DNA from: Escherichia phage SR02 | Direction: 5' to 3' (one strand) | DNA length: 64,000 nucleotides | Sequence record: OQ870566.1 | Shown: positions 13,955 to 32,887 of the stretch, piece by piece | Layout of the letters: every line of letters starts with the position of its first letter | How positions within the stretch are numbered: the stretch's first letter is position 1 | Position numbers and translations under genes: made by a program | The notes under the pieces: generated by a model | Told to the model about the DNA's origin: nothing | The model's database searches: none | The model's input: only the letters and a program-made list of their open reading frames with translations

Positions 13955-14201
13955 CTATATCTCCCTTGCTATAATCTTTGTATGTTTCTACTTTGTAAGT
14001 GCGGAATGCTCTGAAGAAGAGCCAACCTAAGCTACTCACATCAATTGTAATATCGAAATCTGTTTCATCATCTAGGTCAACAAGACGACCTAAGCATGTA
14101 GCTTCCATCCCTTCTTCAGAGTCACTATTGACTACGAAAGCGTATGTCTCTGTTCTGAACCGAGGCACCATCTCTGATAAAAAGTCTAATACTAAATTCA
14201 T
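13947..14201 (-). CDS. hypothetical protein (84 aa)
   Basis: First gene of the minus-strand block, overlaps the start of the next gene. Confidence 0.4.
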   Translation of the reverse strand: MNLVLDFLSEMVPRFRTETYAFVVNSDSEEGMEATCLGRLVDLDDETDFDITIDVSSLGWLFFRAFRTYKVETYKDYSKGDIDE

Positions 14202-15213
14202 AATTCTTCTCCTCTGAATAAGAGTATAAAGGGCTAGGCATATCTAACCCGTAAAGGCACCCTCATAACAACAACCCGTGTACGCTGAAGTAAAGGGGGC
14301 TTCATGTTAAGGCTTAGTCATAAAGGCCATGTCACGTTAAGGCCTATCCATCCATGTGCTGTGTTTAAGCTTACCACATTTACTACATCTCCAAGTGGAC
14401 TTATAAAGGGTGTGAACTCTTTCATCCCCGTAAGCTTTGCGTATCCGATAGTACTCATGATCACATTTGAATTGCTTAATGATTAACTTAATTTTCCACA
14501 TAAGTTCTCTTTCAACCTTATATATAAGAGTTTAAAATTCTGATTTGACCGAGTGGGGCTAGGCGCTCTGCGACGAATTGTTAAAAAGGGGGAGTCCTCA
14601 AATAAAAAAGGGTTATTGGCAATGCCTTTACACCTTCTTCCACGTTCCAGCTTTCCCCGTGCCTACTCCCCGTTATTCTTTCCCCGTGTATACCATCCTA
14701 TTCATTAGCTACCCGTTTATTTAGTTCCCCTTTAGAGAGTAAGAGAAAGGCTAGTCACTGATAATGATTAGATTAAGGCACTATGAATAAGCTAATAATA
14801 CCCCTAGTTACTACCCCATTCCCCCATAGTTTGAGTGTAAATAGTTTCAATAGTAATGATTATGAGTGCAATAATGATGTATGTATTAATTAAGTGGATA
14901 ATAGTAATTAACAGTTATTATATTCTTTTTACTCTTTTCTTTTTTTCAGCGTTCTGTTGGTCTTTTTCTTTTATGAGTTAACTAATTATTTAAGTGGTAT
15001 ATTATTACCGCACTATCTTGCTATGTTTCCCCGTGGTCTATCCTGCGGTTGTATACTCCCCGTGTCCTGGTCTGTTGGTCTGTTACCCGTGGTGTTATCG
15101 TTAATGTTATAAAGTAACAATAGCTAGTAAGTTGATGCTCTGAGTATGGAAAGTTTAGTAAATTAAATTCCTTTAGTATTCAGTGAGTTATGAAAAAGTT
15201 AGAAAATAAATGG

Positions 15214-15242
15214 TTGACAGGCTTTTCCTTTAATATATAGTT
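15214..15242 (+). promoter_or_regulatory. sigma70-type early promoter (TTGACA, about 16 bp spacer, TATAGT)
   Basis: Consensus -35 hexamer and near-consensus -10 read directly; about 45 nt upstream of the first plus-strand gene. Confidence 0.6.
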
Positions 15243-15285
15243 GCAATCGTATTTTGTAGTTTTCATCAACCAAAAGGAATATCAA

Positions 15286-16158
15286 ATGTCTAAAGTAGCA
15301 ATTAACCACTTGAACAAAGCAAACGAAAGCCTTTCCTCTTTGGGCTTGTCTGTTGGTAGTCCTGATGCGTGGATGGAAAACGAAAGTGCACGTAAAGGAT
15401 TCAAAAACTCTGTAATGCTGGCTTGCTTGATCATTAATTCTACTGCGAACGCCTTACAGTGTGAAGATGAAAGCACGTTCAAAGAGAATGGCTTTACCGA
15501 TATGCAGGACGCTATCAACTGTTACATTCAGGCAAATTTGGATAGCTGGAATCAGAAAGATTGGCCTGAGTCATGCCGTGATGTGAAAGCTGAATTATCC
15601 CGCTTGTCTGTCATGGTTGAAGCATGGAATAAGAAAAACAAGAAGCAACCTATCAAGCCTACTGTTGCAAGTAAGATTATGAAGTCTGTTAATCTGGCAA
15701 GTTATGCACTGGTTGCAGCGATCGGTGTTAGTGCACTGGTCACATCTCTTTCTGATAAGGCTGTTGCTAGTCCTACTCCTGCAACTGATGCGGCTAGTGT
15801 CTTCTCTAGTTCCATCAATAAGGGTTGGATGATTTGCAACGGTGCGGATAGTGACGGCAATAATACCGTGCTAAAGATGAAATTTAGCAACGTTACTAAT
15901 GATGGCGTTCTCTTTCAATCTAAAACGTTAGATAATCAGCCTAACAGTGATCTAGTTCTCAAGCGTACCGATAACGATGCGGATATGGTTACATTTGGCA
16001 CTGTACAACGTTACGAAGACGTTAAAGCTGTCACCAACCTAGTGAGTTATGGTCCGGTTAATGAGTCGATGATCGCCACTACTGTTTACAATAATGCCGA
16101 TAACGCTGTTTATACCGTTCACGTTAATTTAGCCAACTGCATTAAGGCTAGTAAGTAA
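15286..16158 (+). CDS. hypothetical early protein (290 aa) with one hydrophobic segment
   Basis: ATG with AAAGGAA RBS directly downstream of the promoter; the upstream TTG start in the ORF track is rejected. Confidence 0.6.
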   Translation: MSKVAINHLNKANESLSSLGLSVGSPDAWMENESARKGFKNSVMLACLIINSTANALQCEDESTFKENGFTDMQDAINCYIQANLDSWNQKDWPESCRDVKAELSRLSVMVEAWNKKNKKQPIKPTVASKIMKSVNLASYALVAAIGVSALVTSLSDKAVASPTPATDAASVFSSSINKGWMICNGADSDGNNTVLKMKFSNVTNDGVLFQSKTLDNQPNSDLVLKRTDNDADMVTFGTVQRYEDVKAVTNLVSYGPVNESMIATTVYNNADNAVYTVHVNLANCIKASK

Positions 16159-16184
16159 ATAACCTATTTTTGGGAGTGTAAATA

Positions 16185-16451
16185 ATGGCTATTAAAGAAG
16201 TTAAATTATCTAACGGTTTTTCTTGTTTTGTTGGTGGAAGCTCTATCCTGTTTAATACACTTGATGGTCAGATAACGTTACCTGTTATCACTTTTTGCAG
16301 GATGGAATTTCAACCTCTTAAGGATTGGTTAGCCTTTGCTAATTTTGAAATTACCCGTGAAGACTTCAAATCAATCTATATTGACGGTGATTTGTCACTG
16401 GCTAACCTGCTCAACCATGGGCTGAATGGGGATGATATTAATGGGGAATGA
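16185..16451 (+). CDS. hypothetical protein (88 aa)
   Basis: ORF in co-directional early array. Confidence 0.45.
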   Translation: MAIKEVKLSNGFSCFVGGSSILFNTLDGQITLPVITFCRMEFQPLKDWLAFANFEITREDFKSIYIDGDLSLANLLNHGLNGDDINGE

Positions 16452-16689
16452 AACTATCGCGTTAATTGATACGCATAATTACGGTGGCGTTACGCTATCC
16501 TTTGATGAATCAACCGACGTTGGATATTTATCTTTTCTTTCTAAAGGTGAGATACAAACTATCCGCTTTCCTATTGTTTGTTTGGTGCAAGATTATCTAA
16601 CTGTTGGGAAGTATTTAGCCCAACGTGGGATTCTTCTGTCGCTGGAAGAAGTGGAACAGGTTAGCGTAGCATTTTTTTGGCGAGGATAG
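16426..16689 (+). CDS. hypothetical protein (about 83-87 aa)
   Basis: ORF overlaps the previous gene end; alternative in-frame ATG at 16441. Confidence 0.4.
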   Translation: MGMILMGNETIALIDTHNYGGVTLSFDESTDVGYLSFLSKGEIQTIRFPIVCLVQDYLTVGKYLAQRGILLSLEEVEQVSVAFFWRG

Positions 16690-16799
16690 CAACTAGTGAT
16701 TCATGATTATTTTTGGCGTTGCTTGTTCGTTGTTACAGTGGCGTTATTCGTCGCTGATGTGCTTTATTCTTACGTTCTTTAATTAAGAGGTTTATTGCT

Positions 16800-17165
16800 A
16801 TGTGGTTTATTAAATTCATCGTTAAAACGGTTGTAGGCTTCTTTCTGGTCGTTCTTCTGTTGGGTGTCCTGCTATCGGCTATGGGTAGCGTTAAAGCTGC
16901 AACGTTTTCCCCTGCTACGGTGGAAGGTTTACAGTGCACCTATTTGATAGAAAACTATTCGACTGGTAAAAAGTCACCTAAGGTTATTATTTTACATGTA
17001 AATGATTTCGATCATGTACAATCATATGATAAAACTATTCAACTGGTAAATGAATCCACTGGTAAACAAATCACGGTCGATCACTTGATGCGCTCATCGT
17101 TAACGCTCTTTGATGAGTCCATGAATGAAATGGCATCCGGTTTAGGTCAATGTGTAAATCCATAG
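16800..17165 (+). CDS. hypothetical membrane or secreted protein (121 aa)
   Basis: N-terminal hydrophobic helix (VVGFFLVVLLLGVLLSAMG). Confidence 0.5.
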   Translation: MWFIKFIVKTVVGFFLVVLLLGVLLSAMGSVKAATFSPATVEGLQCTYLIENYSTGKKSPKVIILHVNDFDHVQSYDKTIQLVNESTGKQITVDHLMRSSLTLFDESMNEMASGLGQCVNP

Positions 17166-17241
17166 GCTTAATCTTTCTCCTTTATTGTGCCGTAGTCATG
17201 CCTATGGTCATAATTTATCTGATTCTCTAAATCCTTCCTGT

Positions 17242-17270
17242 AAGCCTCCTAGTGAGGCTTTTCTCTTTTA
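17242..17270 (+). terminator. rho-independent terminator
   Basis: Hairpin AAGCCUC-CUAGU-GAGGCUU followed by UUCUCUUUUAU. Confidence 0.5.
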
Positions 17271-17469
17271 TAGGGTGATTGTATTCCTTACTCCCTTTTA
17301 GCTCGTTGTGATGCGTTACAGGCCGTTAAATGGTGCTTTACAAGCCTTTTCCTACGATGTATCACGCGCGCCCGTTCCTTTACCTCCTGATTTCTTCCGG
17401 TGTCCTATCAACAATAAAATAAATTCCTTTATAAAACAGTGAGATATAAAATAATTTGAAAAAAGGGTA

Positions 17470-17497
17470 TTGACAGGGTTTTCCTGTATAGTAATAT
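17470..17497 (+). promoter_or_regulatory. sigma70-type early promoter (TTGACA, 16 bp, TAATAT)
   Basis: Consensus hexamers read directly. Confidence 0.6.
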
Positions 17498-17675
17498 GAA
17501 TCCCGTAGTAAGCAGTAAGTAACAACAAGTAGTAAAAACTCCTCGATAGGTGATTAGCATCACGGTAAAAGGCTTCAACGGGGAGCGGTAGGAATACCGA
17601 CAGTAAGACGCACAATGAAAGTGCTACGCTCTTTAAAAATCAGGCTAGAAAGTGAAAATATTCTTAAAAAGAGTA

Positions 17676-17704
17676 TTGACACCGAAAACAGCCTGATTCA
17701 TAAT
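17676..17704 (+). promoter_or_regulatory. sigma70-type early promoter (TTGACA, 17 bp, CATAAT)
   Basis: Consensus -35 with 17-bp spacer; near-identical in sequence to the promoter at 18127. Confidence 0.6.
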
Positions 17705-18126
17705 AAGCACTCAGTCAGCGATGACTTAAAACATCCCCGCTCTTTAAAAACTTATCATCTTGCCCTTTCGCAAAGATACACGCGAGATAAGGGAAAAGAA
17801 TAAAAGAAGATGATAAAAAAGAGATTGCAAACGTGGTTAAGATAGTCCATACTAACCACAAGTTAACAAAACAACGTTAACTAGTTCCCAAATCAACGTA
17901 TCGCGGGAAAGGTGGCACATAGTGCGGCGAGTAGTTCAGGGTTAGGCGTCCTGTTAATGAATCAGTAAGCCTTCAATGCCATAGTGATTAGCAGACACTT
18001 TAAAAGGCTAACGCTCTTTAACAATATGAATCATAAGTTAAGCCTCACCGCTTAATCTTCAACCCAATAAAGCGGGTTGATATATCCTCCCAATAGCGGG
18101 AACGACGAAAAAAGATTAAAAAGTGG

Positions 18127-18155
18127 TTGACAGCGAAAACAACATGATTCATACT
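18127..18155 (+). promoter_or_regulatory. sigma70-type early promoter (TTGACA, 17 bp, CATACT)
   Basis: Paralogous to the promoter at 17676 (TTGACA.CGAAAACA.C.TGATTCATA.T.AGCACTCA). Confidence 0.55.
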
Positions 18156-19079
18156 GAGCACTCACTAAGCAAATCACCGCTTCAGTGAAAAGCGTAACAA
18201 CGGCTAACAGTTGCATAGTGTGAGAAAGCACACTGATAGATTTACCGCTCTTTAATAATTTAAACATTCTCCTATATCGGTTGATTATGTTAGATGATAA
18301 TAACCATCGGATAACATACCAGATAAAACGGTGTAAGATTCTCTAAACTATCAGAGAAAACAATCTTACAATCCCTTACCGGAAACGTCACCACTGATAA
18401 ACGGATTCATTGAGTACACGCAACGACTGAAGCTAATCGCCCACGGTTAAGGGTAGCGGCGGTCATCGCTAACAAGGTGCTACAGTGAAAGAAGTTAATC
18501 AGGGTAGACAAGCCCGACGAATTAACGCTCAATTGAGAGCGGCGGTGAATGGTTAAAAAGTGGCAAATTGCTATTTAACAATAAGGTTTAGTGTGAACGT
18601 TTACGATGTGAACGGCTTGAGATTCATCACAAGATGAAAGTACATAGTCGGTTTATGTAGTAAACTTGCCGAAAGATATAAAACGTCAGAACATTAGACG
18701 GTCAATGACTCTTTCACAATAGCATCCCGTTGTGGGCGATGGCTAGTGATTGAGAGTTGATACAAAAGGATAGGCGAGAGCGAAAGCAAAGTAGACGATA
18801 TTGCCGACGGTTACAATAAACGTAACTAATTAGAGTCGGACGCACTGCCTTATTGTGATGATTGATCATCGCTATCAGGTCGGCTTCGTTTATAGCGACT
18901 AATTAAAGATACCAGATGAAACATCACGGATAAGGGGGCGGCAAGGTTAACTCCTGATAAGACCGCCCCGCTTACCTATAACTACTTAACAACGAGTGGT
19001 TATAGTTAAGTTAATAGTGACTTAAACAAGCTCATAGAGAGCGGGGCAATAGCGCCCTTACAATTGAAAGGTGAATATC

Positions 19080-19979
19080 ATGGCTAAAATCTTTACTCTG
19101 GTTAACGAATCCGGTTTTAATGCTCTGGCTAACAACATTCGCAGTAATAACGCGGCGATCAAACAAGATGTTTCTAACTTCCTGTTAGGGCACTTACAGC
19201 ACTTCCGCAGTAATGGTAAGAAGTTAGATGTATTGCAGGCGGCGGTTGACTTCCTGTTAACCGAACGTTTCCGTGATATGGATGTTATTGCTACCTCAAT
19301 TACTTTCTTAACTCCTATCAAGTTTAACACCGATGCGGCAAATGGTCGTAAAAAGTGGATTAATCTGGAAGGTGAGGCGAAAGCTAAAGAAGACGCGAAA
19401 GAAGCGCAAATTAAAACCAAAATGGAACAAAACCGCGCTCGATGGTCAAATGCTTTCGAAAACTTTGCTTTAGGCCGTGAAATTGAAGTTGATAACCCTA
19501 ACTTCTACAAGGGTTGCAATGACAACGTGGCGGCACACCTGCAAATCCCGGCGAAAAACAAGGAAGATTTTAACCAAGATATTTACTCTTTAGTTGAACG
19601 CTTGAATGCAATCCGTATCGAAGCCAAATTGCTGGCTGATGAGCGAAACGGCGCAACTAGTGATAACACTATCGCCCTGAGTGAAGAAGTTGGCAAGGTT
19701 AAAAAGTCCTTTGATTCACTCATCAAGAAAGTAACGGCCTCGACGGTAGCGATCTCAGACGATTATCTGATGAACGCATCAAGCAAGGAGCTGGAATCAC
19801 TCGATTCATACGCTGATGAAATGGAAAAAGCTGTTACAGCTATGCAGGAGAAGTTAGAGAGTCTGCGCGGTCGTATCTCTTCAACGGTTGCTACCCGTAC
19901 CGAACAAGCGGCTAAAGAAGAAGAGGAAGAAGTATTGCGCAAGGCAGCTGAAATTATGGCGGCACGTCAGGCAGCATAA
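19080..19979 (+). CDS. hypothetical early protein (299 aa), helical with Glu/Lys-rich C-terminus
   Basis: ATG with AAGGTGA RBS; followed by a strong terminator; no recognisable domain. Confidence 0.65.
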   Translation: MAKIFTLVNESGFNALANNIRSNNAAIKQDVSNFLLGHLQHFRSNGKKLDVLQAAVDFLLTERFRDMDVIATSITFLTPIKFNTDAANGRKKWINLEGEAKAKEDAKEAQIKTKMEQNRARWSNAFENFALGREIEVDNPNFYKGCNDNVAAHLQIPAKNKEDFNQDIYSLVERLNAIRIEAKLLADERNGATSDNTIALSEEVGKVKKSFDSLIKKVTASTVAISDDYLMNASSKELESLDSYADEMEKAVTAMQEKLESLRGRISSTVATRTEQAAKEEEEEVLRKAAEIMAARQAA

Positions 19980-20002
19980 GTAAGATAATTCAAATAAGCA
20001 TA

Positions 20003-20037
20003 AGGCGCTATCTTAACGGGTAGCGCCTTTTCTTTTA
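20003..20037 (+). terminator. rho-independent terminator
   Basis: Perfect 8-bp stem AGGCGCUA...UAGCGCCU followed by UUUCUUUUAU. Confidence 0.7.
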
Positions 20038-20090
20038 TCAGTGCATTGATTCAGTGCATTAATCAAAGAATCCAATCAAAGGTGACGATC

Positions 20091-20309
20091 ATGTTAATTA
20101 CACATACCACGATTTATCGGAATCTTGTCAACGGTCAACATTACCGACTATCTAAAAAGTATGGCGTTGAATGTAAATGTGTTATTACCGGTGAATGGTA
20201 TCCGTCGCCAATGAAGATTGAAACGTTGGAACGTGAAGCGATCAGCTATATTATCACGCAAGAAACAACGCTAGGCCGTGTCTTAAGAAAGTTGGGATTA
20301 AGAAAATGA
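20091..20309 (+). CDS. hypothetical protein (72 aa)
   Basis: ATG with AAAGGTGA RBS. Confidence 0.45.
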   Translation: MLITHTTIYRNLVNGQHYRLSKKYGVECKCVITGEWYPSPMKIETLEREAISYIITQETTLGRVLRKLGLRK

Positions 20310-20530
20310 TATTCAGTAATAATTTTGGCAAGTGTCCTATTTGTGAGAAACATCGCAGCACGGGAAACCATCGCAAATGTAGTAAGATATTACAGCGCCA
20401 ACGTGATAACAATCATTGGGATACTGTACACACTAACCAGCGTAAAGAAGAAGTTAGGAAAATGGCTGTTAAAGCGTCATTTGCTCAATCCACCCGTATT
20501 GAACACATTCAAAGGTATCAAGCATCATGA
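20306..20530 (+). CDS. hypothetical Cys/His-rich protein (74 aa)
   Basis: ATGA overlap with previous gene; CPICEKH...HRKC cluster. Confidence 0.4.
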   Translation: MIFSNNFGKCPICEKHRSTGNHRKCSKILQRQRDNNHWDTVHTNQRKEEVRKMAVKASFAQSTRIEHIQRYQAS

Positions 20531-20736
20531 TCACTAATATTTCAGAGTTTAAGAAAGCTCCCTCTCGTCTGTTAGGCCGTCGTGTAGTGTATCTTTATAG
20601 CAATAAAGGTAAATGTACAACCGGACGAATCACAACAGTAAGCAGTATCAACAAAAAACTATTGCAATTAAGCGTAGTTATGGACGATGGTACAATCCTG
20701 CTACGTAGTTGGAAATCGTTCGGTTTACTTGATTAA
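20527..20736 (+). CDS. hypothetical protein (69 aa)
   Basis: Overlap-coupled ORF. Confidence 0.4.
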   Translation: MITNISEFKKAPSRLLGRRVVYLYSNKGKCTTGRITTVSSINKKLLQLSVVMDDGTILLRSWKSFGLLD

Positions 20737-20805
20737 GTTATTTGTTCAAGCCTGTCGCCTTGATGGGCTTGCCCGATATAATTTATCACTGAAAGGAATA
20801 AGATT

Positions 20806-21249
20806 GTGGCTAAATCTAAAATCAGCATGAAGGGCGGGCGTTGTTTTGCTATCTCTGAACTAGAGAAAGAGAAACCGAAGGCAACTAATCACGTCAGTAA
20901 GCGTAGTTTAAAACGTCGTGCTGCAAAAGCTGAGGCTGAATCCCATGTCCCTTCCAGTGTGGCAAAACGTGTAGGTCATCGTGTCCATCGTGCTGATGCG
21001 TTGTTGTTAGCTGATCATAAACGTTCTTTGTTACAGAGCGGGGGCGCTAAAACAGAAGAAGAGAAGAAGTTAGAAATCTTCTGTAATGGTCGCACCCGTG
21101 GTAAACAGAAGTTTAAAGGTAGCACGAAAGACCCGCAAGCATTCCCTAAGACAAGTCAGTGTGCACCTGATGTTTTCTACGCAGATAGTAAACACAAGTG
21201 GGGCGTTGAAAAATACATTGACCCCATCAAGGAGGCAAGGGTTAAGTAG
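20806..21249 (+). CDS. hypothetical basic protein (147 aa)
   Basis: Lys/Arg-rich ORF with RBS. Confidence 0.5.
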   Translation: MAKSKISMKGGRCFAISELEKEKPKATNHVSKRSLKRRAAKAEAESHVPSSVAKRVGHRVHRADALLLADHKRSLLQSGGAKTEEEKKLEIFCNGRTRGKQKFKGSTKDPQAFPKTSQCAPDVFYADSKHKWGVEKYIDPIKEARVK

Positions 21250-21329
21250 TAGGAATATAGCCCCCTCTTTTAGTACTATGACGCTCTTTCTGTAGCGTCG
21301 TGCCCTCTCCCCATTTGAAGCTTCCGCAT

Positions 21330-21352
21330 AGCCGCCTTTGAGCGGCTTTTTG
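21330..21352 (+). terminator. rho-independent terminator
   Basis: Hairpin AGCCGC...GCGGCU followed by UUUUU. Confidence 0.5.
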
Positions 21353-21414
21353 CGTTGCTGTAAGTGCATTTGCGAGTGTATTTATAGCAACGGTCATGTG
21401 TTGCTTTCAGGTTT

Positions 21415-21441
21415 GCCCCGGCTACGGCTGGGGCTTTTTTT
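21415..21441 (+). terminator. rho-independent terminator
   Basis: Hairpin GCCCC-GGCUACGGCU-GGGGC followed by UUUUUUU. Confidence 0.6.
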
Positions 21442-21466
21442 GTATCTATTGTATAGGGAATTTTCT

Positions 21467-21766
21467 ATGAAAAACCCATTCGAGTTGATAAGTACAGACC
21501 CTGTAGAAATCAACATGCTTTCATTGAAGTCCAAGCTGATCATTATTCTTACGGAGTTGATCCGTGAGCAGGGGTGGTCACAACGTGTCGCAGCAGAGAA
21601 GCTAGGTGTTAGCCAGCCAAGGATTAGTAACCTTATGAATGGACAGCTTTCAAAGTTCTCCGTCGATATGTTGTTGGAAATGGTTTTCAAGATGGGGTAT
21701 AAGCTGGACATGAACTTCACTCCACTAAACACCAAGTCGCCACTGGCAATATTTGTAAAAAAGTGA
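21467..21766 (+). CDS. HTH (XRE/Cro-like) transcriptional regulator (99 aa)
   Basis: ELIREQGWSQRVAAEKLGVSQPRISNLMNG helix-turn-helix signature; start moved to the ATG after the terminator. Confidence 0.65.
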   Translation: MKNPFELISTDPVEINMLSLKSKLIIILTELIREQGWSQRVAAEKLGVSQPRISNLMNGQLSKFSVDMLLEMVFKMGYKLDMNFTPLNTKSPLAIFVKK

Positions 21767-21897
21767 TTGTGTAAGTTACAAATAGTAAGATAACACCTAT
21801 TCCGAAAGAGTAGGTGTTTCTATAAACATCTTTTCGAGGGTGTTTATGGAAACAACAAAACAGGAGGTAGCAAGTTCTGATAACAACGGCCCAGCTA

Positions 21898-22287
21898 ATG
21901 TTGACATTGACTATTTATTATGAGGCAGGGAATCAGCCAACCGCATGTAAAGCTATGGTTGCGGATACCGTGATAAATAGAATGGCCCAACGAAAACTGA
22001 CCGCTGAACAGGTGATAAGACAAAAGAACCAGTTTGAGTGGATTCCGGTACTATTAAAACAGGAGAAACCTTATAAACGTTATGTAAAGCTGATTCGTGA
22101 TAAAAATCCGATGACTAAGCAGGCCATTGGAGAAAGCGAGCGACTTGCTAAACGTGCCCTTAAAAAGAATTATGTTCCGCTGTACAGTGGGACTTACTTT
22201 CAGAGTAAGAGCGAAGGGGTGCCAAAATGGTATGCCAATCCTATGTATTGTGGTGATTTAGTGTTCGATAATAGCTCTAGGGAATAA
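21898..22287 (+). CDS. putative cell wall hydrolase (SleB/CwlJ Hydrolase_2-like)
   Basis: IYYEAGNQPTACKAMVADTVINR resembles the Hydrolase_2 EARGE...AVA.VVLNR motif; weak RBS. Confidence 0.4.
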   Translation: MLTLTIYYEAGNQPTACKAMVADTVINRMAQRKLTAEQVIRQKNQFEWIPVLLKQEKPYKRYVKLIRDKNPMTKQAIGESERLAKRALKKNYVPLYSGTYFQSKSEGVPKWYANPMYCGDLVFDNSSRE

Positions 22288-22486
22288 TCACTAGTGCCAG
22301 ATTTGACAAACTAAATTCCTTTATAAACCAACCACTTAGTAAATTTATTGAAAAAGATGGTAGTATTCTGGGACTATGGGTAATGCTCTGTATATAGACC
22401 CTTTGAAAATTTCTTAGAAAATAAGTTTACTAAATATAACTTACTTAAATAATATTACTTTTAATCTCTGATAAAGGGTAAATAAT

Positions 22487-22783
22487 ATGACTTTAGAGGT
22501 ATATAAATTCCTTTTTGTACTCTGTTTAACTGTCAGCGTTCTAGGATTTATTGTTCTAAGAAACAAAGCAGCAAGCTGGGAGAGAATGTATAAATCTCTA
22601 GTCCGAGTGGATGAGATGTATAATGAGAAAGTTAAAGCAACTCTTAACGATCTTATTATGCAAGTTGAAGACAGAAACAAACGTCTTCAGAATCTCAACC
22701 ACGAAGTGTTACGCCTTGCTCGTGCTAACGAAGACTTGCGAGTGGCGATTGCTAAGCAGCAGGAGATTAACAGTGAAAGTTAA
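22487..22783 (+). CDS. membrane-anchored coiled-coil protein (98 aa)
   Basis: N-terminal TM helix FLFVLCLTVSVLGFIVL followed by charged heptad region. Confidence 0.5.
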   Translation: MTLEVYKFLFVLCLTVSVLGFIVLRNKAASWERMYKSLVRVDEMYNEKVKATLNDLIMQVEDRNKRLQNLNHEVLRLARANEDLRVAIAKQQEINSES

Positions 22784-22820
22784 TATCATATCTGACCGAT
22801 CTATTATACGTTTGAATAAC

Positions 22821-23006
22821 ATGAAGCCTGGGCTTTTATTCTCTTTAAAAGATACGCTTTATATTCGAACCAATTCAACTACTGAAAACTATGTGAAGTG
22901 TGTCAATGTTATTAGTGGAACCTTACAACCTTTAGATAAGGATGCAATTTGCTGGGTAAGGGATGACCTTCACATAACCAATATAGAGGCTAAAGATGAA
23001 GATTGA
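22821..23006 (+). CDS. small protein, member of a paralog family (61 aa)
   Basis: Shares KxGDxF/xLxTG-type pattern with ORFs at 22996, 23255, 26973, 27224, 27475, 28185. Confidence 0.35.
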   Translation: MKPGLLFSLKDTLYIRTNSTTENYVKCVNVISGTLQPLDKDAICWVRDDLHITNIEAKDED

Positions 23007-23250
23007 TCTTAAGGTAAATGAACCCTCTCTGTGTGTTGGTGATCTTAAACTTGGAGATGTATTCCAAATAAGGGAAACACGAGCAGATTTCTACATGGTT
23101 GTTCAACTGTTTAGGTCACAGGTTGAGGAGACTAAACCTTCTGATGGTGGTTGTGTCGTCCTCAGTCTAACAAACAAGCAAGTCCTTAAGCTCAGCCCAA
23201 AAAGTAAGGTTGTTCTTCTTCATAACGTTGTAATTACCAATAAAGGGTAA
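22996..23250 (+). CDS. small paralog-family protein (84 aa)
   Basis: LKLGDVFQIR motif; see paralog family. Confidence 0.45.
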   Translation: MKIDLKVNEPSLCVGDLKLGDVFQIRETRADFYMVVQLFRSQVEETKPSDGGCVVLSLTNKQVLKLSPKSKVVLLHNVVITNKG

Positions 23251-23254
23251 GTAG

Positions 23255-23470
23255 ATGGAAATTAAAGTATCTGAACACAAGTATGCAAACATAGAAGATA
23301 TTAAGAGTGGTGATGTCTTCTCTTACGATAAACGTTTCTGGCTGATGCTAGATGATGATCTCTCTAATGGACTACGTAGGGCTGCTGATCTAAGCACCGG
23401 TCATGTTGGTAACTTCAACCCATCATCCACTGTTATGCCTCGTCCTGATTTGCATTTGACTCAAAAGTAA
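23255..23470 (+). CDS. small paralog-family protein (71 aa)
   Basis: IKSGDVFSYD and DLSTGHVGN motifs. Confidence 0.45.
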   Translation: MEIKVSEHKYANIEDIKSGDVFSYDKRFWLMLDDDLSNGLRRAADLSTGHVGNFNPSSTVMPRPDLHLTQK

Positions 23471-23977
23471 CACCGACTTATAGCCCTTGTGTCTATCAGA
23501 GGGCTATGTGAGGGTGTTCCTCATTAACTTATTAATTCAGGCATATGCCACACCGCTAGGGAGAGCTTGCTCAAACATCCGGTGCTAGACTAAAACCTGT
23601 TAATTTTCGAAAGACTTTCTGATATGTAGGGGTACATATTAGTTTGGGATTCAGGAGACTTCCTAGGGGTAGGGAGTCTTCACCAGTTGGAATAAGAGAT
23701 AGCTCTAGAACCTGAACTCTTAGGCAGAGAAGGTCGGCAATGAGTACGCGGTCAGGATTAGTCTACTGACTAGGGCTATCCCTTATATCAACTGGCAATA
23801 ATGCCTCCACTAACAAAGAGAGATAGGTATGAAAGTATCAACCAAACGTATGAACCGCCCTGAACGTATGGATGCAGTAGCTAACGGTGCTCTGAAACTG
23901 GAAGGCTTCTGGATTCATGCAATGTCAGCCATCCGTAGTAAGCAAGGTAATTGGACATATAACAGTTAATAATTAAA

Positions 23978-24009
23978 AGGCTGCCCAATCGGGTGGCCTT
24001 TGTTGTTTT
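23978..24009 (+). terminator. rho-independent terminator
   Basis: Hairpin AGGCUGCC-CAAUCG-GGUGGCCU followed by UUGUUGUUUU; near-identical hairpin at 50138. Confidence 0.6.
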
Positions 24010-24108
24010 AGGTAAATCACCTTTAATTGCTTTTCCCATCTGCATTCCACATGAATGAGTGCAGCAGTGATTGGGGTGGTTTACCTAAACTAACAAGAGG
24101 AAGCTAAA

Positions 24109-24285
24109 ATGTCTAAGCAAACAATCAAACATACGCAAGCTGGTTACTCTTATGTTAACTCTCCTTGCTGTGGTGCTCGTGTTAATCTGGTTAAAGAAGA
24201 GGTTCGTATCGTTCAGCGTGGCGCTACTGTTGTTCGTTCATGTTGCGTCTGTGGTAATGATATTTTTATTAAAGGTAAAGTATGA
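24109..24285 (+). CDS. small zinc-ribbon protein (58 aa)
   Basis: Manually translated; SPCCGARV...SCCVCGND Cys pairs; AGAGGA RBS. Confidence 0.4.
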   Translation: MSKQTIKHTQAGYSYVNSPCCGARVNLVKEEVRIVQRGATVVRSCCVCGNDIFIKGKV

Positions 24286-24533
24286 AAAACTTTCAAGCTG
24301 CACCAATCACTAAAGTGATCGAAGTTGACGGTGTAATGATGACTGTTCCTCTGAACACTCGTTACATTGCAATTGACAAGATGGGCTATGTATGGGCTTG
24401 GAAGATCAAGCCTAGTTATAACGCACTGTTTGATGAGTTTGTTTGTACTGGTACTTACAGTCCTACATTCTTGGGTTTATTTGGAGAGTTTGATGGTAAG
24501 CATAAAATCATCACTCTCCCTGCTTGTGCTTGA
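24282..24533 (+). CDS. hypothetical protein (83 aa)
   Basis: ATGA overlap with previous ORF. Confidence 0.45.
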   Translation: MKNFQAAPITKVIEVDGVMMTVPLNTRYIAIDKMGYVWAWKIKPSYNALFDEFVCTGTYSPTFLGLFGEFDGKHKIITLPACA

Positions 24534-24540
24534 GGTTATT

Positions 24541-24705
24541 ATGTTCAAGTGGTTTAAACGTTTCTTCCATCTCCATGATTGGGAGACAATAAAAGAAATT
24601 CGTTTACACATACATAATGAGATTGGTCAAATAGAAGACACAGGTACTCGTTATATACTTCGATGTAAAACATGTGGTCATATCACCAAGCGAGATATGA
24701 TCTAA
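24541..24705 (+). CDS. small Cys-containing protein (54 aa)
   Basis: ATG after TGAGGTTATT RBS context; CKTCGH motif. Confidence 0.3.
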   Translation: MFKWFKRFFHLHDWETIKEIRLHIHNEIGQIEDTGTRYILRCKTCGHITKRDMI

Positions 24706-24713
24706 ATAATTCT

Positions 24714-24789
24714 GCGCTCTTAGCTCAATGGATAGAGCAGTAGCCTTCTAAGCTATTGGTTACAGGTTCGAGTCCTGTAGGGCGCACCA
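24714..24789 (+). tRNA. tRNA-Arg (anticodon UCU)
   Basis: 76-nt cloverleaf folded by hand: acceptor GCGCTCT/AGGGCGC, D-stem GCTC/GAGC, anticodon stem GTAGC/GCTAT with loop CTTCTAA, T-arm ACAGG-TTCGAGT-CCTGT, encoded CCA. Confidence 0.85.
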
Positions 24790-24911
24790 CATTTAGGGCT
24801 AGTATGGGTGCGGCACCAGAGTTAGTGTATCCCTGTTGAGGCGAGTGCTTTTATAACAGTGGGAATTACTTTCTTAGTGAGCTTCTGGTTCGATTCCAGA
24901 TAGTCCACCAA
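24790..24911 (+). other. tRNA-like 3' element (canonical T-arm GGTTCGATTCC plus CCA) lacking foldable acceptor and anticodon arms
   Basis: T-arm UCUGG-UUCGAUU-CCAGA and ...UCCACCA read directly; no complementary 5' acceptor or anticodon stem found by hand. Confidence 0.3.
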
Positions 24912-24928
24912 ATTAAGTGAGAGGTATC

Positions 24929-25105
24929 ATGGGTAATAAACTTTTAGTTATCTCCATAACTGAAGTCAATCAAAAACTACAATCAAAAGTTAGAACCCTA
25001 GTCTTCTTAGATGAGGAAGAAGGTAGGGATTTTATTGAGAATTCCGGCAAAACAATAATCTCTGTTGAACTGGCCGAGGTTATGTGCTCTTACAAAGCTT
25101 TCTAG
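24929..25105 (+). CDS. hypothetical protein (58 aa)
   Basis: ATG with GAGAGG RBS. Confidence 0.35.
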   Translation: MGNKLLVISITEVNQKLQSKVRTLVFLDEEEGRDFIENSGKTIISVELAEVMCSYKAF

Positions 25106-25114
25106 GAGGTAATT

Positions 25115-25414
25115 ATGAGTTGGGGTGGTGTAATATCCTTAATCTGTATCTTCCTTGTCTGTATAGCCCTTACAGGCTGCGTACAGAGTCGTCCTGATGG
25201 ATGGTGTGCAGTAGCAGTGGAAGGTGTTTGTGTTTCTCGCTGGCATAAAGGTAAGAAGGTTCCTTCTGGTGAAATTGATATGCGCTGGAACGGAGCAACC
25301 TGCTCTAATGCTAACCCTTCTATCAACGAAGAGAAATCTACACCGGATAATGTTGTGATTGATACAGCGTTGTGGTGTGGTGGCTCTGTAACAACAACCG
25401 GTAAGGAGTGGTAA
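25115..25414 (+). CDS. Cys-rich lipoprotein (99 aa)
   Basis: Strong RBS TAGGAGG; signal peptide with lipobox LTGC (ISLICIFLVCIALTGC); several further Cys. Confidence 0.6.
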   Translation: MSWGGVISLICIFLVCIALTGCVQSRPDGWCAVAVEGVCVSRWHKGKKVPSGEIDMRWNGATCSNANPSINEEKSTPDNVVIDTALWCGGSVTTTGKEW

Positions 25415-25415
25415 T

Positions 25416-25664
25416 ATGACAGCTCATTATTGGAATACAAAGAAGCTTCTTGAAGAGATGGCTGGGGGTAGTAGAGTACAGCTAATCTCTATGCTTCGAA
25501 TGGATGCTCGCTCTTTACGTTTTCAAGTAAAGATTGGTAACTTTAGTGATGGTCTTTATTACACACTGAAGGAAAGAATTAAGAAGACTCACTTTATTAT
25601 GTACGGAATCAAACCGAGAACGTATGTTAACTACATGTATTGGGATACATGCTACGATAATTGA
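25416..25664 (+). CDS. hypothetical protein (82 aa)
   Basis: Tightly following ORF. Confidence 0.45.
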   Translation: MTAHYWNTKKLLEEMAGGSRVQLISMLRMDARSLRFQVKIGNFSDGLYYTLKERIKKTHFIMYGIKPRTYVNYMYWDTCYDN

Positions 25665-25671
25665 GGTTATT

Positions 25672-25893
25672 ATGTTATTTGAAGCTAAGCAAACATTACC
25701 AGTAGTTCCTTTGTCTACACTTCTTAGTGGGAGTGCTTTTAGACATGATAATGGTTTTTGGATTAAGGGCGACCAAGAGGTTGGAGGATATATTACCTGC
25801 ATCAACATCTGCAACGGCGTTGTTGACGGATTTCGTCCAGCCGCTGAAGTCACTCCTCAATCCAACGCAAAGGTTGTAGGTTTGGTATATTAA
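25672..25893 (+). CDS. hypothetical protein (73 aa)
   Basis: ATG after TGAGGTTATT RBS context. Confidence 0.4.
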   Translation: MLFEAKQTLPVVPLSTLLSGSAFRHDNGFWIKGDQEVGGYITCINICNGVVDGFRPAAEVTPQSNAKVVGLVY

Positions 25894-25902
25894 GGAGTTC
25901 AT

Positions 25903-26076
25903 ATGAGCTGTTTTGGTGGCGGTGAAGTAGATGACGATGATGACATGGAATCCAACGGTACATGTCCTGATTGTGGGTGTGAGACATGGGATGGGGTGTC
26001 TGTCTATCCTGTCTGTAGTTACTCACCAGTGATTTGTAAAACATGTGGAGATCAACCTTGTGATCAGTCCTGTTAG
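25903..26076 (+). CDS. small acidic Cys-rich protein (57 aa)
   Basis: AAGGAG RBS; CPDCGC...CKTCGDQPC clusters. Confidence 0.45.
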   Translation: MSCFGGGEVDDDDDMESNGTCPDCGCETWDGVSVYPVCSYSPVICKTCGDQPCDQSC

Positions 26077-26077
26077 T

Positions 26078-26293
26078 ATGTTAATTGTTTACCTGATAGG
26101 TGTGGTGTTATCAGGTGTGTTTGTTAAGGTTGTTGATATTAAAGATGATCAAGTCTTCAGACATTGGAGCGGATATCCAAACCTCAGCAAAATAGCAATT
26201 GTCCTTTTCTTGTGGCCTATCATTGTTGCGTTGCTTATAATTATAGGACTTTGGACTTTGCTATGGGAGTTAATTCTTCCTGTCAAAAAGTAA
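26078..26293 (+). CDS. small membrane protein with two TM helices (71 aa)
   Basis: Hydrophobic segments LIVYLIGVVLSGVFV and IAIVLFLWPIIVALLIIIGLW. Confidence 0.45.
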   Translation: MLIVYLIGVVLSGVFVKVVDIKDDQVFRHWSGYPNLSKIAIVLFLWPIIVALLIIIGLWTLLWELILPVKK

Positions 26294-26652
26294 GAGCTTA
26301 TCGTGAAGGATTCTTACGAGAGTCCTTTGAGATAGGACTTCAGATCTCCTATCAAACTAACATTCATGTAACTAGCCCATAAGGGCGTTACCCTTTAATA
26401 ACCCAGCCCACTAAGGGGGCGGGAGTTTAGTGCTGGATTGGCTTTACGCTTATTCCTACAAAGGCAACCGATTGTTAGATCTTACATGCAACATTAATTA
26501 ATAGGATAAGGGAGGATTCGTCCCCTCCCCCTATTCATAAACTATTAGGAGAGTACATTAGCTGATTAGCTGTAGAAGGTAGGCCGATATCTACAGCGTG
26601 GCCCAGAGCTAGTGTGCTCCCCTGATAGTTTTAACATTTAATTGGAGGATGT

Positions 26653-26964
26653 ATGAAAGCACGAAGAACTATATGGACTCCGATGCAGATTGAAAATCTT
26701 CGGAGACTAATCAAAGAGTACTCGGTTCAAGAAGTTGCTCAGATTATGAATGTAACGGAGAATGCAGTTAATACAGCTTGCACTAAGTTCGGAATATCAA
26801 GAGCTGTAATCCGAGTTAAGTGGTCTAAAGAAGAGGACCAGTTCCTTATCCGTAATGCTGGGTTCATGTCTATTCAGAGAATGGCTGACATGCTCGGTAG
26901 AAGTTATGCTGCTGTACAGAACAGGGCATGTATGCACCTTAACATTAGCCTCAAACTTAAATAG
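26653..26964 (+). CDS. putative DNA-binding protein with duplicated HTH-like motif (103 aa)
   Basis: Two W/S-anchored helix-turn-helix-like repeats (WTPMQIENLRRL...; WSKEEDQFLIRN...). Confidence 0.5.
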   Translation: MKARRTIWTPMQIENLRRLIKEYSVQEVAQIMNVTENAVNTACTKFGISRAVIRVKWSKEEDQFLIRNAGFMSIQRMADMLGRSYAAVQNRACMHLNISLKLK

Positions 26965-26972
26965 GAATCAAT

Positions 26973-27227
26973 ATGAAAGTTAACGAATTGAACAAAACTA
27001 CCAAGACAGTGAAACTGCACACTCTGAAAAAGGGTGATACATTCCGTTTAGAGGAGAATGGACCAATCCACATGGTCTGCACTGCTGAATCTACTAATTG
27101 GGTGGAAGTTGCACGAGATCGAGTAGTGTGTGTCAGGCTGGAAGATGGTAATCTGAGTGGTCCGGTCGAGGGTATTCCTGTTATCCCTGTTAAAGTTGAA
27201 GCTAACGTTATTAAGGGTTCTAAATGA
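26973..27227 (+). CDS. small paralog-family protein (84 aa)
   Basis: LKKGDTFRLE motif. Confidence 0.5.
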   Translation: MKVNELNKTTKTVKLHTLKKGDTFRLEENGPIHMVCTAESTNWVEVARDRVVCVRLEDGNLSGPVEGIPVIPVKVEANVIKGSK

Positions 27228-27469: not shown

Positions 27470-27474
27470 TGCAT

Positions 27475-27723: not shown

Positions 27724-27954
27724 GAAAACAAATGAGACGTAAAGCATATTCTTATGACGATATGATTAACCAGAAAGGCTTCGGTCAACGACAGCCTGAC
27801 GGTTCAATTATCTGGTTCGTAAACGGACAGAAAAAGGTAGCTAAATAAGCCCTCTTCTCTCCTCCTTTTAGTACTATGACGCCTCTCTGTGGGCGGCCCA
27901 ATTTGCGTAGGGAATTCCCTCTACGCAGCCATGACTTTTTAAGGAATTTCCCAT

Positions 27955-29521: not shown

Positions 29522-29523
29522 GT

Positions 29524-29886: not shown

Positions 29887-29897
29887 AGGTTGGTATA

Positions 29898-32878: not shown

Positions 32879-32887
32879 GAGGTTATC

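Follow-up and report, generated by a model that had tools for sequence, protein, structure and literature searches.

Between its homologues of phiEco32 genes 125 and 124, Escherichia phage SR02 carries strong sigma70-type promoters alternating with boxA elements, followed by an untranslated RNA of 0.9 kb for which a multi-domain fold is predicted with extensive covariation. From the identity, order and conservation of these elements it seems probable that they constitute an rrn-like, Nus-modified, Rho-resistant transcription unit, which would yield a functional structured leader or non-coding RNA and then lead into a long early operon. The window analyzed here is a stretch of 64,000 nt of record OQ870566.1, and the phage belongs to the Kuravirus-type coliphages (phiEco32/SU10 group), of which phiEco32 and SU10 serve as references in phage therapy and in work on the takeover of transcription (gp36 sigma factor, gp79). 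The "spacer" that separates genes 125 and 124, to which the ORF-poor region corresponds, has already been published for phiEco32 and SU10, as have its three sigma70 promoters; the recognition of its boxes as boxA and of the downstream 0.9 kb as a structured RNA appears to be new. No mention of either was found in the searchable literature, to which the phiEco32 studies by Savalia (2008) and Pavlova (2012) did not belong. An initial annotation of this stretch had described tandem promoters, a recurring box and ORF-poor DNA, an observation that is real as a whole, with the corrections given below. It contained neither the identification of boxA nor the RNA structure, nor the earlier phiEco32/SU10 descriptions of the promoters and the spacer.

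Promoters and boxA Elements

A consensus scan recovered on the + strand the four promoters previously placed at 15214, 17470, 17676, and 18127, all with a perfect TTGACA as -35 hexamer. Promoter-like matches as a whole are no more frequent in 14000-21000 than expected by chance (13 against 19.6); these four are the best + strand matches in that interval and are kept in relatives. Transcription start sites were predicted from the promoter consensus only. The elements of the promoter region are, in order:

15214..15241, + strand: promoter of the first small early operon, TTGACA-16-TATAGT (11/12)
17242..17268, + strand: terminator-like hairpin with T-run at the end of the first early operon, AAGCCTCCTAGTGAGGCTT TTCTCTTTT
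17470..17497, + strand: promoter P1, TTGACA-16-TAATAT (10/12), predicted start near 17504
17628..17638, + strand: boxA 1, GCTCTTTAAAA, perfect match, conserved, about 124 nt after the P1 start
17676..17704, + strand: promoter P2, TTGACA-17-CATAAT (11/12), predicted start near 17711
17739..17749, + strand: boxA 2, GCTCTTTAAAA, perfect match, conserved, about 28 nt after the P2 start
17825..17853, + strand: weak promoter-like site, TTGCAA-17-CATACT (8/12)
18013..18023, + strand: boxA 3, GCTCTTTAACA, perfect match, conserved
18127..18155, + strand: promoter P4, TTGACA-17-CATACT (10/12), predicted start near 18162
18247..18257, + strand: boxA 4, GCTCTTTAATA, perfect match

The promoter at 15214 serves an operon of homologues of phiEco32 genes 128-125, with an ATG at 15286 and hence near-immediate translation; at the place of the hairpin that ends it, a terminator is annotated in the SU10 and SU7 records. 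P1 is conserved in SU10, phiEco32, EK010, EP335, and WFI. P4 has an A-rich stretch upstream, and in each of the 16 genomes its position is taken by a promoter of 10/12 or better. At the weak site, EK010, TH34, PAS59, and SU7 have a strong promoter instead (TTGACA-16-TAGAAT), 52 nt upstream of boxA 3. The proposed paralogy of the promoters at 17676 and 18127 was borne out, and those at 15214 and 17470 form a second such pair, with a common upstream block and TTGACAGGnTTTTCCT.

BoxA is the RNA site bound by NusB/NusE(S10), for which we used the gamma-proteobacterial consensus GYTCTTTAANA (PMC5725501). The recurring box, reported near 17628, 17737, 18012, and 18246, is an exact CGCTCTTTAA at 17627, 17738, 18012, and 18246, and all four copies match GYTCTTTAANA perfectly on the transcribed (+) strand. 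CGCTCTTTAA occurs five times in the 64 kb window where 0.15 matches are expected, a number that none of 100 shuffles reached; the consensus itself also has five matches (0.64 expected), four of them within 630 nt on one strand. The remaining box-like matches in the window, GTTCTTTAATA at 11268 and CGCTCTTTAA at 57748, are both antisense within ORFs. Together with its flanking C and A, boxA 3 agrees at 12 of 13 positions with TGCTCTTTAACAA, which we take to be the rrn box. At boxA 4 a block of 27 nt (GATTTACCGCTCTTTAAnAATTTAAAC) is invariant in all relatives, and the distance from this box to the gene-124 ATG is about 834 nt here and 834-844 nt overall (873 in LAMP).

Each of the three strong spacer promoters has one boxA 28-124 nt downstream of its predicted start; boxA 3 follows only the weak site at 17825, 153 nt after the start predicted there. 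A boxA is found after every strong promoter that feeds untranslated RNA, and the search for boxA found none after the promoter at 15214, whose RNA is translated immediately. Candidate hairpins lie 5' of the boxes: a covarying one 11 nt upstream of boxA 4, and small ones, recognized from the sequence, before boxes 1-3 (GCACAATGAAAGTGC before boxA 1). A GU-rich boxC-like element was not found 3' of any of the four boxes. The weaker copy that had been suspected near 18706 (GACTCTTTCACA) can be dismissed as a box, since it differs from boxA at two positions and forms part of a covarying helix. The fifth copy is better represented by TGCTATTTAACAA at 18569, which has one mismatch and is conserved in 24 of 24 sequences except for one C/T position; since it carries an A at boxA's fourth base, a C, it is probably not a functional box.

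The suggestion that the boxes bind a host or phage factor is supported by their perfect agreement with boxA as far as a factor site is concerned, with the difference that binding would take place on RNA and not on DNA. A role as double-stranded DNA sites is unlikely, as the motif is asymmetric and its approximately 65 copies in 16 genomes all lie on the transcribed strand behind promoters. Because boxA is a site on nascent RNA, the EMSA with host extract proposed earlier would, if done on DNA, be the wrong experiment. Terminators can be ruled out, since no stable hairpin with a T-run occurs at the boxes.

All 15 relatives, down to ca. 74% DNA identity, possess 3-5 perfect boxA elements in the homologous spacer, without exception on the transcribed strand, and the alternating order of promoters and boxes is kept in the 16 genomes, with a spacer length of 1850-2280 nt across relatives. 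The spacer is not, as had been stated, literally free of ORFs of 60 aa or more, since it holds three mechanical ones:

17615-17803, + strand: ORF of 62 aa, split or frame-broken in every relative
18052-18267, - strand: ORF of 71 aa, intact in about half of the relatives
17352-17615, - strand: ORF of 87 aa, intact in only three relatives

A hidden or frameshifted gene can nevertheless be ruled out, since these ORFs are mostly broken in relatives and no + strand ORF of more than 54 codons occurs within the conserved 0.9 kb in any of 24 sequences.

A Structured RNA Upstream of the Gene-124 Homologue

For the stretch between the last promoter and the start codon of gene 124 (18162-19079), RNAalifold predicts a multi-domain fold of 239 pairs, with 99.1% of the cells paired. 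The input comprised 24 distinct sequences, which are close relatives (mean column identity 87%) from few lineages. Compensatory double changes occur at 80 pairs, compared to 36.2 ± 3.0 in shuffles (0 of 500 reached this number) and 8-10 in slid controls, and compensatory cells number 330, compared to 14-22 in slid controls; prediction and counting on the same alignment inflate the comparison with the slid controls, though not by this margin, and many compensatory cells are inherited rather than independent because the sequences are close relatives in few lineages. The structure contains 656 G·U cells and only 18 A·C cells, which indicates a structured RNA read from the + strand and rules out a structure on the opposite strand, though the complement, too, gives a good fold (z = -6.9). 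The single-sequence fold has an MFE of -279.4 kcal/mol (z = -7.9). The parts of the RNA are:

18216..18235, + strand: covarying hairpin UAGUGUG-AGAAAG-CACACUG (helix 2), ending 11 nt 5' of boxA 4
18259..18557, + strand: RNA domain I (helices 4-17), closed by the long-range helix 18259-18272 with 18544-18557
18558..18581, + strand: hairpin holding the boxA-like TGCTATTTAACAA (18569-18581), predicted to be base-paired (helices 18 and 19)
18578..18856, + strand: RNA domain II (helices 19-31), closed by 18578-18595 with 18841-18856
18857..19058, + strand: 3' hairpin run (helices 32-40)
19066..19082, + strand: Shine-Dalgarno region and ATG (19080) of the gene-124 homologue

Helix 2, in which three of seven pairs show compensatory changes, one of them appearing as UA, CG, and GC, occupies the place that boxB has in rrn leaders. 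In domain I the covarying pairs number three in helix 4, five in helix 11, and four in helix 12. Domain II has nested helices in which every pair covaries, e.g., 18665-18670 with 18773-18778, and covariation extends to 6/6 pairs of helix 24 and 8/12 of helix 23. The 3' hairpins at 18935-18969 and 18976-19005 have five covarying pairs each, and 8 nt separate the end of the last helix from the Shine-Dalgarno region of gene 124. The GGUGAAU of that region is predicted to pair, as helix 3, with AUUUACC at 18240-18246, just 5' of boxA 4; no pair of this helix has changed on both sides, so it is without covariation support. In TH34 the corresponding GGUAAAU is a perfect complement, and the single-sequence MFE likewise pairs these ends. 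The segment between boxA 3 and P4 gave only two covarying pairs when folded alone and carries no evidential weight.

The identity of this core to the window (0.71-0.96) is higher in every relative than the third-codon-position identity of the adjacent gene (0.55-0.87), and the constancy of the spacer length and of the stretch from boxA 4 to the ATG also speaks for selection. A folded RNA under purifying selection points to a functional RNA and not to filler. The idea of an abundant early ncRNA, raised in the initial annotation, is supported as regards a structured + strand RNA with strong covariation over 0.9 kb, while its early abundance stays a prediction. Covariance models of Rfam 15 gave no match at E ≤ 1 in 14000-21000, and a permissive scan of 17450-19100 reached only 15-21 bits against thresholds of 34-100. 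Known RNA families (GOLLD, ROOL, OLE, HEARO, 6S, RNase P, tmRNA, introns, riboswitches, and others) were rejected in the absence of a gathering-score match. The sole tRNA of the window lies at 24714.

A Putative rrn-Like Transcription Unit

From what is known of rrn leaders, the nut sites of lambdoid phages, and CRISPR leaders, we infer the following course of events. Host sigma70 RNA polymerase would start at 17470, 17676, and 18127, and also at the weak site at 17825 (strong in some relatives), and the nascent RNA would display a boxA 28-153 nt from each predicted start. This boxA would bind NusB-NusE(S10) and nucleate a NusA/NusG/SuhB complex on the polymerase. BoxA recruits NusB/E and makes rrn and lambdoid transcription Rho-resistant (PMC12360218), and untranslated CRISPR arrays also use boxA for Rho resistance (PMC7665894). 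In the phage, the Nus complex would allow Rho-resistant elongation on RNA that is not protected by ribosomes and, by tethering the 5' end, may help the long-range helices to form. In rrn, where the elements are ordered boxB-boxA-boxC, the complex is mainly boxA-dependent, boxB is dispensable, and long-range RNA pairing is chaperoned by the complex (PMC8632103). The polymerase would transcribe the structured RNA of ca. 0.9 kb (18162-19079) and, as no terminator intervenes, proceed into the gene-124 homologue and the long early operon that begins with it. The folded RNA may be a cis-acting leader by which the early mRNA is protected and gated, or it may be processed and act in trans.

The long early operon itself suggests a need for processivity: it would have to be transcribed for at least 20 kb without a further strong sigma70 promoter and past several terminator-like hairpins. 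No + strand sigma70-like site above 9/12 was found in 19000-38900, and strong + strand terminator-like hairpins occur at 20002, 21330, 21415, and 23976 (32 on both strands, 13.1 expected). Complexes of the rrn type counter Rho but have much less effect on intrinsic terminators, so that read-through at 20002 and 21415 may need more than boxA. The sign of the effect is also not given by the sequence, since boxA can also promote Rho termination or repress translation, as for suhB and hisG (PMC12360218). It has moreover been argued that rRNA is intrinsically a poor Rho substrate owing to its structure (PMC5725501); if this holds for structured RNA in general, anti-termination may be secondary to a role in folding. 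BoxA offers a concrete and cheaply testable answer to the question how host polymerase may cross an untranslated stretch plus an early operon of ca. 20 kb without a lambda-N-type protein.

A possible alternative, to which we assign a distinctly lower likelihood, is that the 0.9 kb RNA is a stand-alone trans-acting RNA cut from the early transcript, with the feeding of the early operon being secondary. It might serve against host defence, act as a decoy or scaffold for a host protein, or assemble with itself as an 'ornate' RNA in the manner of ROOL or GOLLD, and the promoters and boxA elements would serve its bulk synthesis and folding, as for rRNA. Its multiple domains, long-range helices and long invariant single-stranded blocks exceed what a Rho shield or mRNA stabilizer needs, its sequence is under purifying selection, and its length from boxA 4 to the ATG is fixed. 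Other large structured RNAs associated with phages are known. The design also resembles rrn, whose complex is an RNA-folding machine (PMC8632103). However, there is no terminator or obvious processing site between the RNA and the gene-124 ribosome-binding site, the last helix runs to within 8 nt of the Shine-Dalgarno region, and no partner is known. Furthermore, the RNA is confined to ca. 100 Escherichia/Shigella phages of one subfamily, without a match in 185,579 bacterial and archaeal genomes.

A bolder and rather doubtful version of this idea is that the phage hijacks the rRNA machinery to make its own 'ornate' trans-acting RNA of ca. 0.9 kb. A Nus/SuhB/S4 complex recruited by the promoter-boxA modules would fold this RNA, which might be a decoy, a scaffold or an anti-defence RNA. 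Its very abundant early transcripts, with 3-5 boxA copies, would also deplete the seven rrn operons of the host of NusB/S10/SuhB and thereby contribute to host shut-off. If true, phage RNAs would gain a new class, and boxA a new use, independent of N, in a virulent phage.

It is quite improbable that the array is essentially a genome-entry motor like T7 A1-A3, as was suggested earlier, in which host polymerase pulls the rest of the genome in, the non-coding stretch acts as a timing spacer, and boxA makes untranslated pulling fast and Rho-proof. As in T7, several strong host promoters lie near a genome end and point inward, here at a distance of ca. 2.8-4.8 kb to the right end in the records of SU10 and phiEco32 (the 77554 nt of phiEco32 have the spacer at 72787-74730 and the end of gene 128 at 76816; the SU10 layout is the same), and the first small operon with its own promoter and terminator would fit a few proteins made before the remaining genome enters. 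A timing spacer, however, needs no conserved sequence, yet covariation and selection at the RNA level are present, and transcription is not mentioned in the SU10 genome-delivery paper.

Least probable of all, and by our estimate very unlikely, is a negative role of boxA, either as a suhB-like brake that represses gene-124 translation and triggers Rho termination or as a sponge by which abundant transcripts titrate NusB/S10/SuhB away from host rrn and aid host shut-off: such negative action is known at suhB and hisG (PMC5725501, PMC12360218), helix 3 is predicted to put the flank of boxA 4 on the gene-124 Shine-Dalgarno, and 3-5 boxes per genome stand behind strong promoters, but boxA 4 is about 834 nt from the start codon where suhB-type sites lie within 50 nt (PMC5725501), the juxtaposing helix lacks covariation support, a lytic phage would hardly be expected to repress its sole access to the early operon, and titration is pure inference.

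Comparison with Known Systems

The putative rrn-like unit shares with the E. coli rrn leader its tandem strong sigma70 promoters with A-rich upstream DNA, boxA elements of the same consensus (box 3 of the phage reads CGCTCTTTAACAA) preceded by a candidate hairpin, and a long RNA that is not translated and is highly structured, with long-range helices. It differs in that the phage has a boxA for each promoter, 3-5 in tandem, whereas the rrn promoters share one, in that no boxC was found in the phage spacer, and in that its product is not rRNA and continues into protein-coding genes of a virulent phage. Like the lambdoid phages with their nut sites, SR02 would use a phage boxA and host Nus factors early, in a long operon containing terminators. 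In contrast to nut sites, the hairpin precedes boxA, and no boxB hairpin follows any of the boxes; AAUUUAAACAUUCUCC, 3' of boxA 4, pairs with distant segments and forms no local hairpin. Moreover, an N-like protein or family was not found among the five neighbouring early proteins, and this virulent phage is unrelated to the lambdoids.

In CRISPR leaders and the suhB 5' UTR (Stringer, 2020; Baniulyte, 2017), a consensus boxA likewise heads an untranslated RNA and deals with Rho; these have a single box, followed by a repeat array or an ordinary mRNA and not by a covarying fold of 0.9 kb. T7 A1, A2, and A3 are three very strong tandem host-type promoters near a genome end as well, with an untranslated leader ahead of the first gene of the main early operon. 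The early leader of T7 measures a few hundred nt, whereas that of the phage measures 0.9-1.6 kb and has boxA elements and a conserved fold. With GOLLD, ROOL, OLE, HEARO, and raiA, the RNA has in common the size class of ca. 0.9 kb, many covarying helices, several domains and an association with phages, and it is unlike them in being continuous with an mRNA, restricted to one phage subfamily and without an Rfam match.

The uses of boxA described in the searchable literature are those of rrn, lambdoid phages, suhB, hisG, and CRISPR arrays, and they would be extended to a virulent podophage. An RNA of ca. 0.9 kb with 80 covarying pairs would be among the few large structured RNAs in a cultivable and genetically tractable E. 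coli phage, so that its function, its folding (including the proposed chaperone role of the Nus factors) and its three-dimensional structure are accessible to direct tests. The promoter-boxA modules could serve as ready parts for the expression of long non-coding RNA in E. coli.

Distribution

No homology was found with the non-coding leader of ca. 1 kb in Salmonella phage 7-11, which has no boxA and gave no nhmmer match; gene 151 of the same phage has no detectable relation to gene 124. A GC-skew profile, looked at for a replication origin, had no distinctive signal. In IMG/VR only five loci were found, four of which are isolates already in the set of relatives or in the blast lists, and a metagenome search returned eight close relatives. 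Homologues of gene 124 occur in 97 phage records, all of Escherichia/Shigella phages, and the invariant blocks of the spacer provide markers for this phage subfamily. The spacer amounts to ca. 2.5% of genomes of the phiEco32/SU10 type, in which it has so far been annotated as unexplained; the records of relatives examined have either no annotation there or only small 'hypothetical' calls.

Promoters and boxA Motifs of the Early Spacer

The spacer of ~1.9 kb (17166-19079) between the homologues of phiEco32 genes 125 and 124 is matched by 95-99 phage records at 74-96% identity, all of them Escherichia or Shigella phages of the phiEco32/SU10 group (Gordonclarkvirinae: Kuravirus, Suseptimavirus, and Nieuwekanaalvirus). 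Its counterparts are an unannotated gap between genes 125 and 124 of phiEco32 (72787-74730 of 77554) and the gap between CDS121 and CDS120 of SU10. Homologues of gene 124 were found only in 97 Escherichia/Shigella phage records. A consensus scan recovered the four promoters listed in the initial annotation, i.e., those at 15214 (first small early operon), 17470 (P1), 17676 (P2), and 18127 (P4; predicted start near 18162), all with a perfect TTGACA and spacers of 16-17 bp. A paralogous block of ~60 nt (aaattccttta..cagtgag.., within 15150-15241 and 17410-17497) lies upstream of both the 15214 and the 17470 promoter, which also have the core TTGACAGGnTTTTCCT in common; these two make up a second type of promoter, unlike the pair at 17676 and 18127.

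The motif said to recur in the spacer is indeed present as four exact copies of CGCTCTTTAA, and the window contains five matches against 0.15 expected. Judged by its sequence, this motif is boxA: all four copies fit perfectly the gamma-proteobacterial consensus GYTCTTTAANA, which is based on the boxA of ribosomal RNA operons (rrn) and suhB and on mutational data (PMC5725501). This consensus has five matches in the window against 0.64 expected; the one that is not among the four boxes (11268) lies antisense within an ORF, as does the remaining exact copy of CGCTCTTTAA (57748).

boxA motifs of the spacer (position of the exact CGCTCTTTAA copy, strand, sequence, fit to GYTCTTTAANA)
Box 1: 17627, + strand, GCTCTTTAAAA, perfect fit
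Box 2: 17738, + strand, GCTCTTTAAAA, perfect fit
Box 3: 18012, + strand, GCTCTTTAACA, perfect fit
Box 4: 18246, + strand, GCTCTTTAATA, perfect fit

The homologous spacer carries 3-5 perfect boxA matches in all 15 GenBank relatives compared, always on the transcribed strand. When boxes were mapped together with promoters scoring at least 10/12, promoters and boxA alternated (promoter, boxA, promoter, boxA) in all genomes mapped, with ~50-185 nt between every mapped promoter and the following box. Upstream of box 3 the window has only a weak promoter-like site (17825-17853; 8/12); EK010, TH34, PAS59, and SU7 possess a strong promoter 52 nt upstream of this box. The 15214 promoter, the transcript of which is translated from 15286 onward, lacks a box, as would be expected if boxA is required where no ribosome trails the polymerase.

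Indels are frequent in the left part of the spacer (~17366-18005), where modules have been gained or lost, as have small genes in some lineages. Total spacer length is held at 1850-2280 nt across the relatives. Two lineage-specific insertions occur in this variable part: a gene for a 66-aa protein (SU7 gp104, L004 2207-2407; also in PAS59 and TH34), 94-100% conserved in the three phages and preceded in SU7 and PAS59 by a boxA 65 nt upstream, and a 107-aa ORF of XT73 (L014 1181-1504) with a signal-peptide-like N-terminus.

A Conserved Non-coding Core

The stretch from box 3 to the start of gene 124 (18006-19079; the core) aligns nearly without gaps in all relatives, with 76-97% column identity. 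In each comparison with a relative, identity over the core (0.71-0.96) is lower than that of codon positions 1+2 of gene 124 and exceeds that of its third codon positions (0.55-0.87); the core is therefore under purifying selection. A block of 27 nt around box 4 is invariant and lies 834-844 nt from the gene 124 ATG in all genomes but one. An invariant 24-mer of the core had no match among 185,579 bacterial and archaeal genomes.

The core has no coding potential; none of the 24 sequences aligned (see below) contains a + strand ORF of >54 codons. The initial annotation reported no ORF of at least 60 aa in the spacer, which is not literally correct since ORFs of 62, 71, and 87 aa are present. 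None of the relatives has the first of these whole (it is either split or frame-broken), the second is intact in approximately half of them, and the third in only three. The Rfam search proposed at that stage gave no family match at E ≤ 1 over 14000-21000, and a permissive scan of 17450-19100 also matched no family (best score 20.8 bits vs. a threshold of 36). A tRNA search found none in the spacer; the sole tRNA of the window is a tRNA-Arg (anticodon TCT) at 24714-24789, in the early region.

A Structured Early RNA

We aligned 24 distinct sequences (the window, 15 GenBank relatives, two further IMG/VR loci, and six metagenome loci) over the interval between the predicted P4 start and the gene 124 ATG. 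As modeled from this alignment, the core is a structured RNA (18162-19079, predicted to read on into the long early operon). RNAalifold predicted 40 helices with 239 pairs, 80 of which show compensatory double changes, and 99.1% of 5729 cells, counted on the alignment, are paired. Against these 80 pairs changing on both sides, shuffling of columns yielded 36.2 ± 3.0 (0/500) and sliding of partners by 1-3 columns yielded 8-10; compensatory cells number 330, compared with 14-22 in the slid controls. As the fold was derived from the same alignment and the 24 sequences are close relatives from few lineages, these cell counts overstate the number of independent events. Long-range helices are supported between 18259-18272 and 18544-18557, 18578-18595 and 18841-18856, and 18665-18670 and 18773-18778 (covariation at all six pairs). 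G·U cells number 656 and A·C cells 18, which identifies the + strand as the folded strand; pairing on the complement would drop to 87.9%. The window sequence itself folds to -279.4 kcal/mol (z = -7.9).

A hairpin at 18216-18235, ending 11 nt 5' of box 4 and covarying at three of its seven pairs, occupies the position of boxB in the boxB-boxA-boxC order of rrn leaders (PMC8632103). A further predicted helix joins AUUUACC, just 5' of box 4, to GGUGAAU in the Shine-Dalgarno region of gene 124; it lacks covariation support because both sides are nearly invariant. The "weaker copy" of the box noted near 18706 turned out not to be a box but part of a covarying helix. A better extra copy, TGCTATTTAACAA (18569-18581), matches rrn boxA at 12 of 13 positions, A replacing the fourth base C; all 24 sequences retain it, varying only at a single C/T site, and the model places it in a base-paired part of the fold. 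Possible readings are a relic box, a box that is masked or regulated, and a coincidence arising from the structure. Just 3' of box 3, UAUGAAUCA (18025-18033) is complementary to UGAUUCAUA (18145-18153), the spacer and -10 region of P4, a double change preserving the pairing in two relatives and an A·C mismatch occurring in four; read-through transcripts from upstream promoters could fold across P4.

Salmonella phage 7-11, related but distinct, also has strongly folding non-coding DNA before its first early gene: ~1050 nt between the genome end and gene 151 (L021 8862-9917, - strand), folding to -338 kcal/mol. This stretch contains no boxA consensus and does not detectably resemble the Kuravirus RNA. 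Long, structured early leaders may be more widespread among these prolate podophages.

The Downstream Early Operon

No terminator-like site was found on the + strand between a site at 17242 and the gene 124 ATG (19080), so transcripts should run into gene 124. Over 19000-38900 there is no + strand sigma70-like site scoring >9/12, and 32 terminator-like sites occur on both strands against 13.1 ± 3.7 expected. With no strong downstream promoter and with hairpins on the sense strand, the early operon appears to need both the promoter array and processive elongation.

Strong terminator-like hairpins with a T-run inside the early operon
20002-20029, + strand
21330-21347, + strand
21415-21434, + strand
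23976-24001, + strand

Proposed Mode of Action

For the promoters and boxA motifs, sequence, strand, order, and conservation are directly established, as is the lack of coding potential, and we also count the modeled RNA fold among these points. With moderate confidence, we favor an rrn-like transcription unit that relies on Nus/boxA and makes a functional structured leader. NusB-NusE(S10) reads boxA on nascent RNA, and Nus complexes nucleated by boxA render the transcription of rrn operons and of lambdoid early genes Rho-resistant (PMC12360218; PMC8632103); untranslated CRISPR arrays use boxA for the same purpose (PMC7665894). By analogy, NusB-NusE would bind the boxA of each nascent transcript and the polymerase would gain NusA, NusG, and SuhB, becoming Rho-resistant on untranslated RNA. 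Tethering of the transcript 5' end would favor the long-range helices, and the modified polymerase would carry on into the early operon, passing the intrinsic terminator-like hairpins either by the rrn-type modification alone or with an added phage factor. The folded RNA may act in cis, by mRNA protection or gating of gene 124 translation, or in trans after processing. A variant in which it is a stand-alone trans-acting product seems possible but rather unlikely. That the promoter array serves as a genome-entry motor is improbable, and the same holds for boxes acting as a repressor or sponge, although both are compatible with an rrn-like unit.

The array promoters and the spacer have already been published for this group. 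Outside the primary phiEco32 papers, our search found no discussion of the nature of the spacer in the phiEco32/SU10-group literature, no use of "non-coding" or "intergenic" for it in that on Kuravirus/phiEco32, and no mention of boxA in top-ranked phiEco32, Kuravirus, SU10, or Gordonclarkvirinae literature. In a review of Rho termination from 2025, the boxA roles listed are limited to rrn, lambdoid N, suhB, and hisG (PMC12360218), and according to the Salmonella phage 7-11 paper the anti-termination strategy of that phage "remains to be defined." While boxA as a signal and the rrn-like unit as a design are known, what appears to be new is their setting: a virulent phage with tandem boxes, in which no N-like protein was identified among the five neighboring early proteins, and a coupling to an RNA family outside Rfam.

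Predicted Genome End

The ~1 kb upstream of the first early promoter (14250-15213) has no convincing ORFs; CCCGTG / GGTCTGTT motifs are repeated there, at about 15030-15100. In the linear SU10 record the genome ends 722 nt before the start of CDS125. By this comparison, the physical end of the genome and its terminal repeat are expected near 14560, in which case the window spans a permuted-assembly junction.
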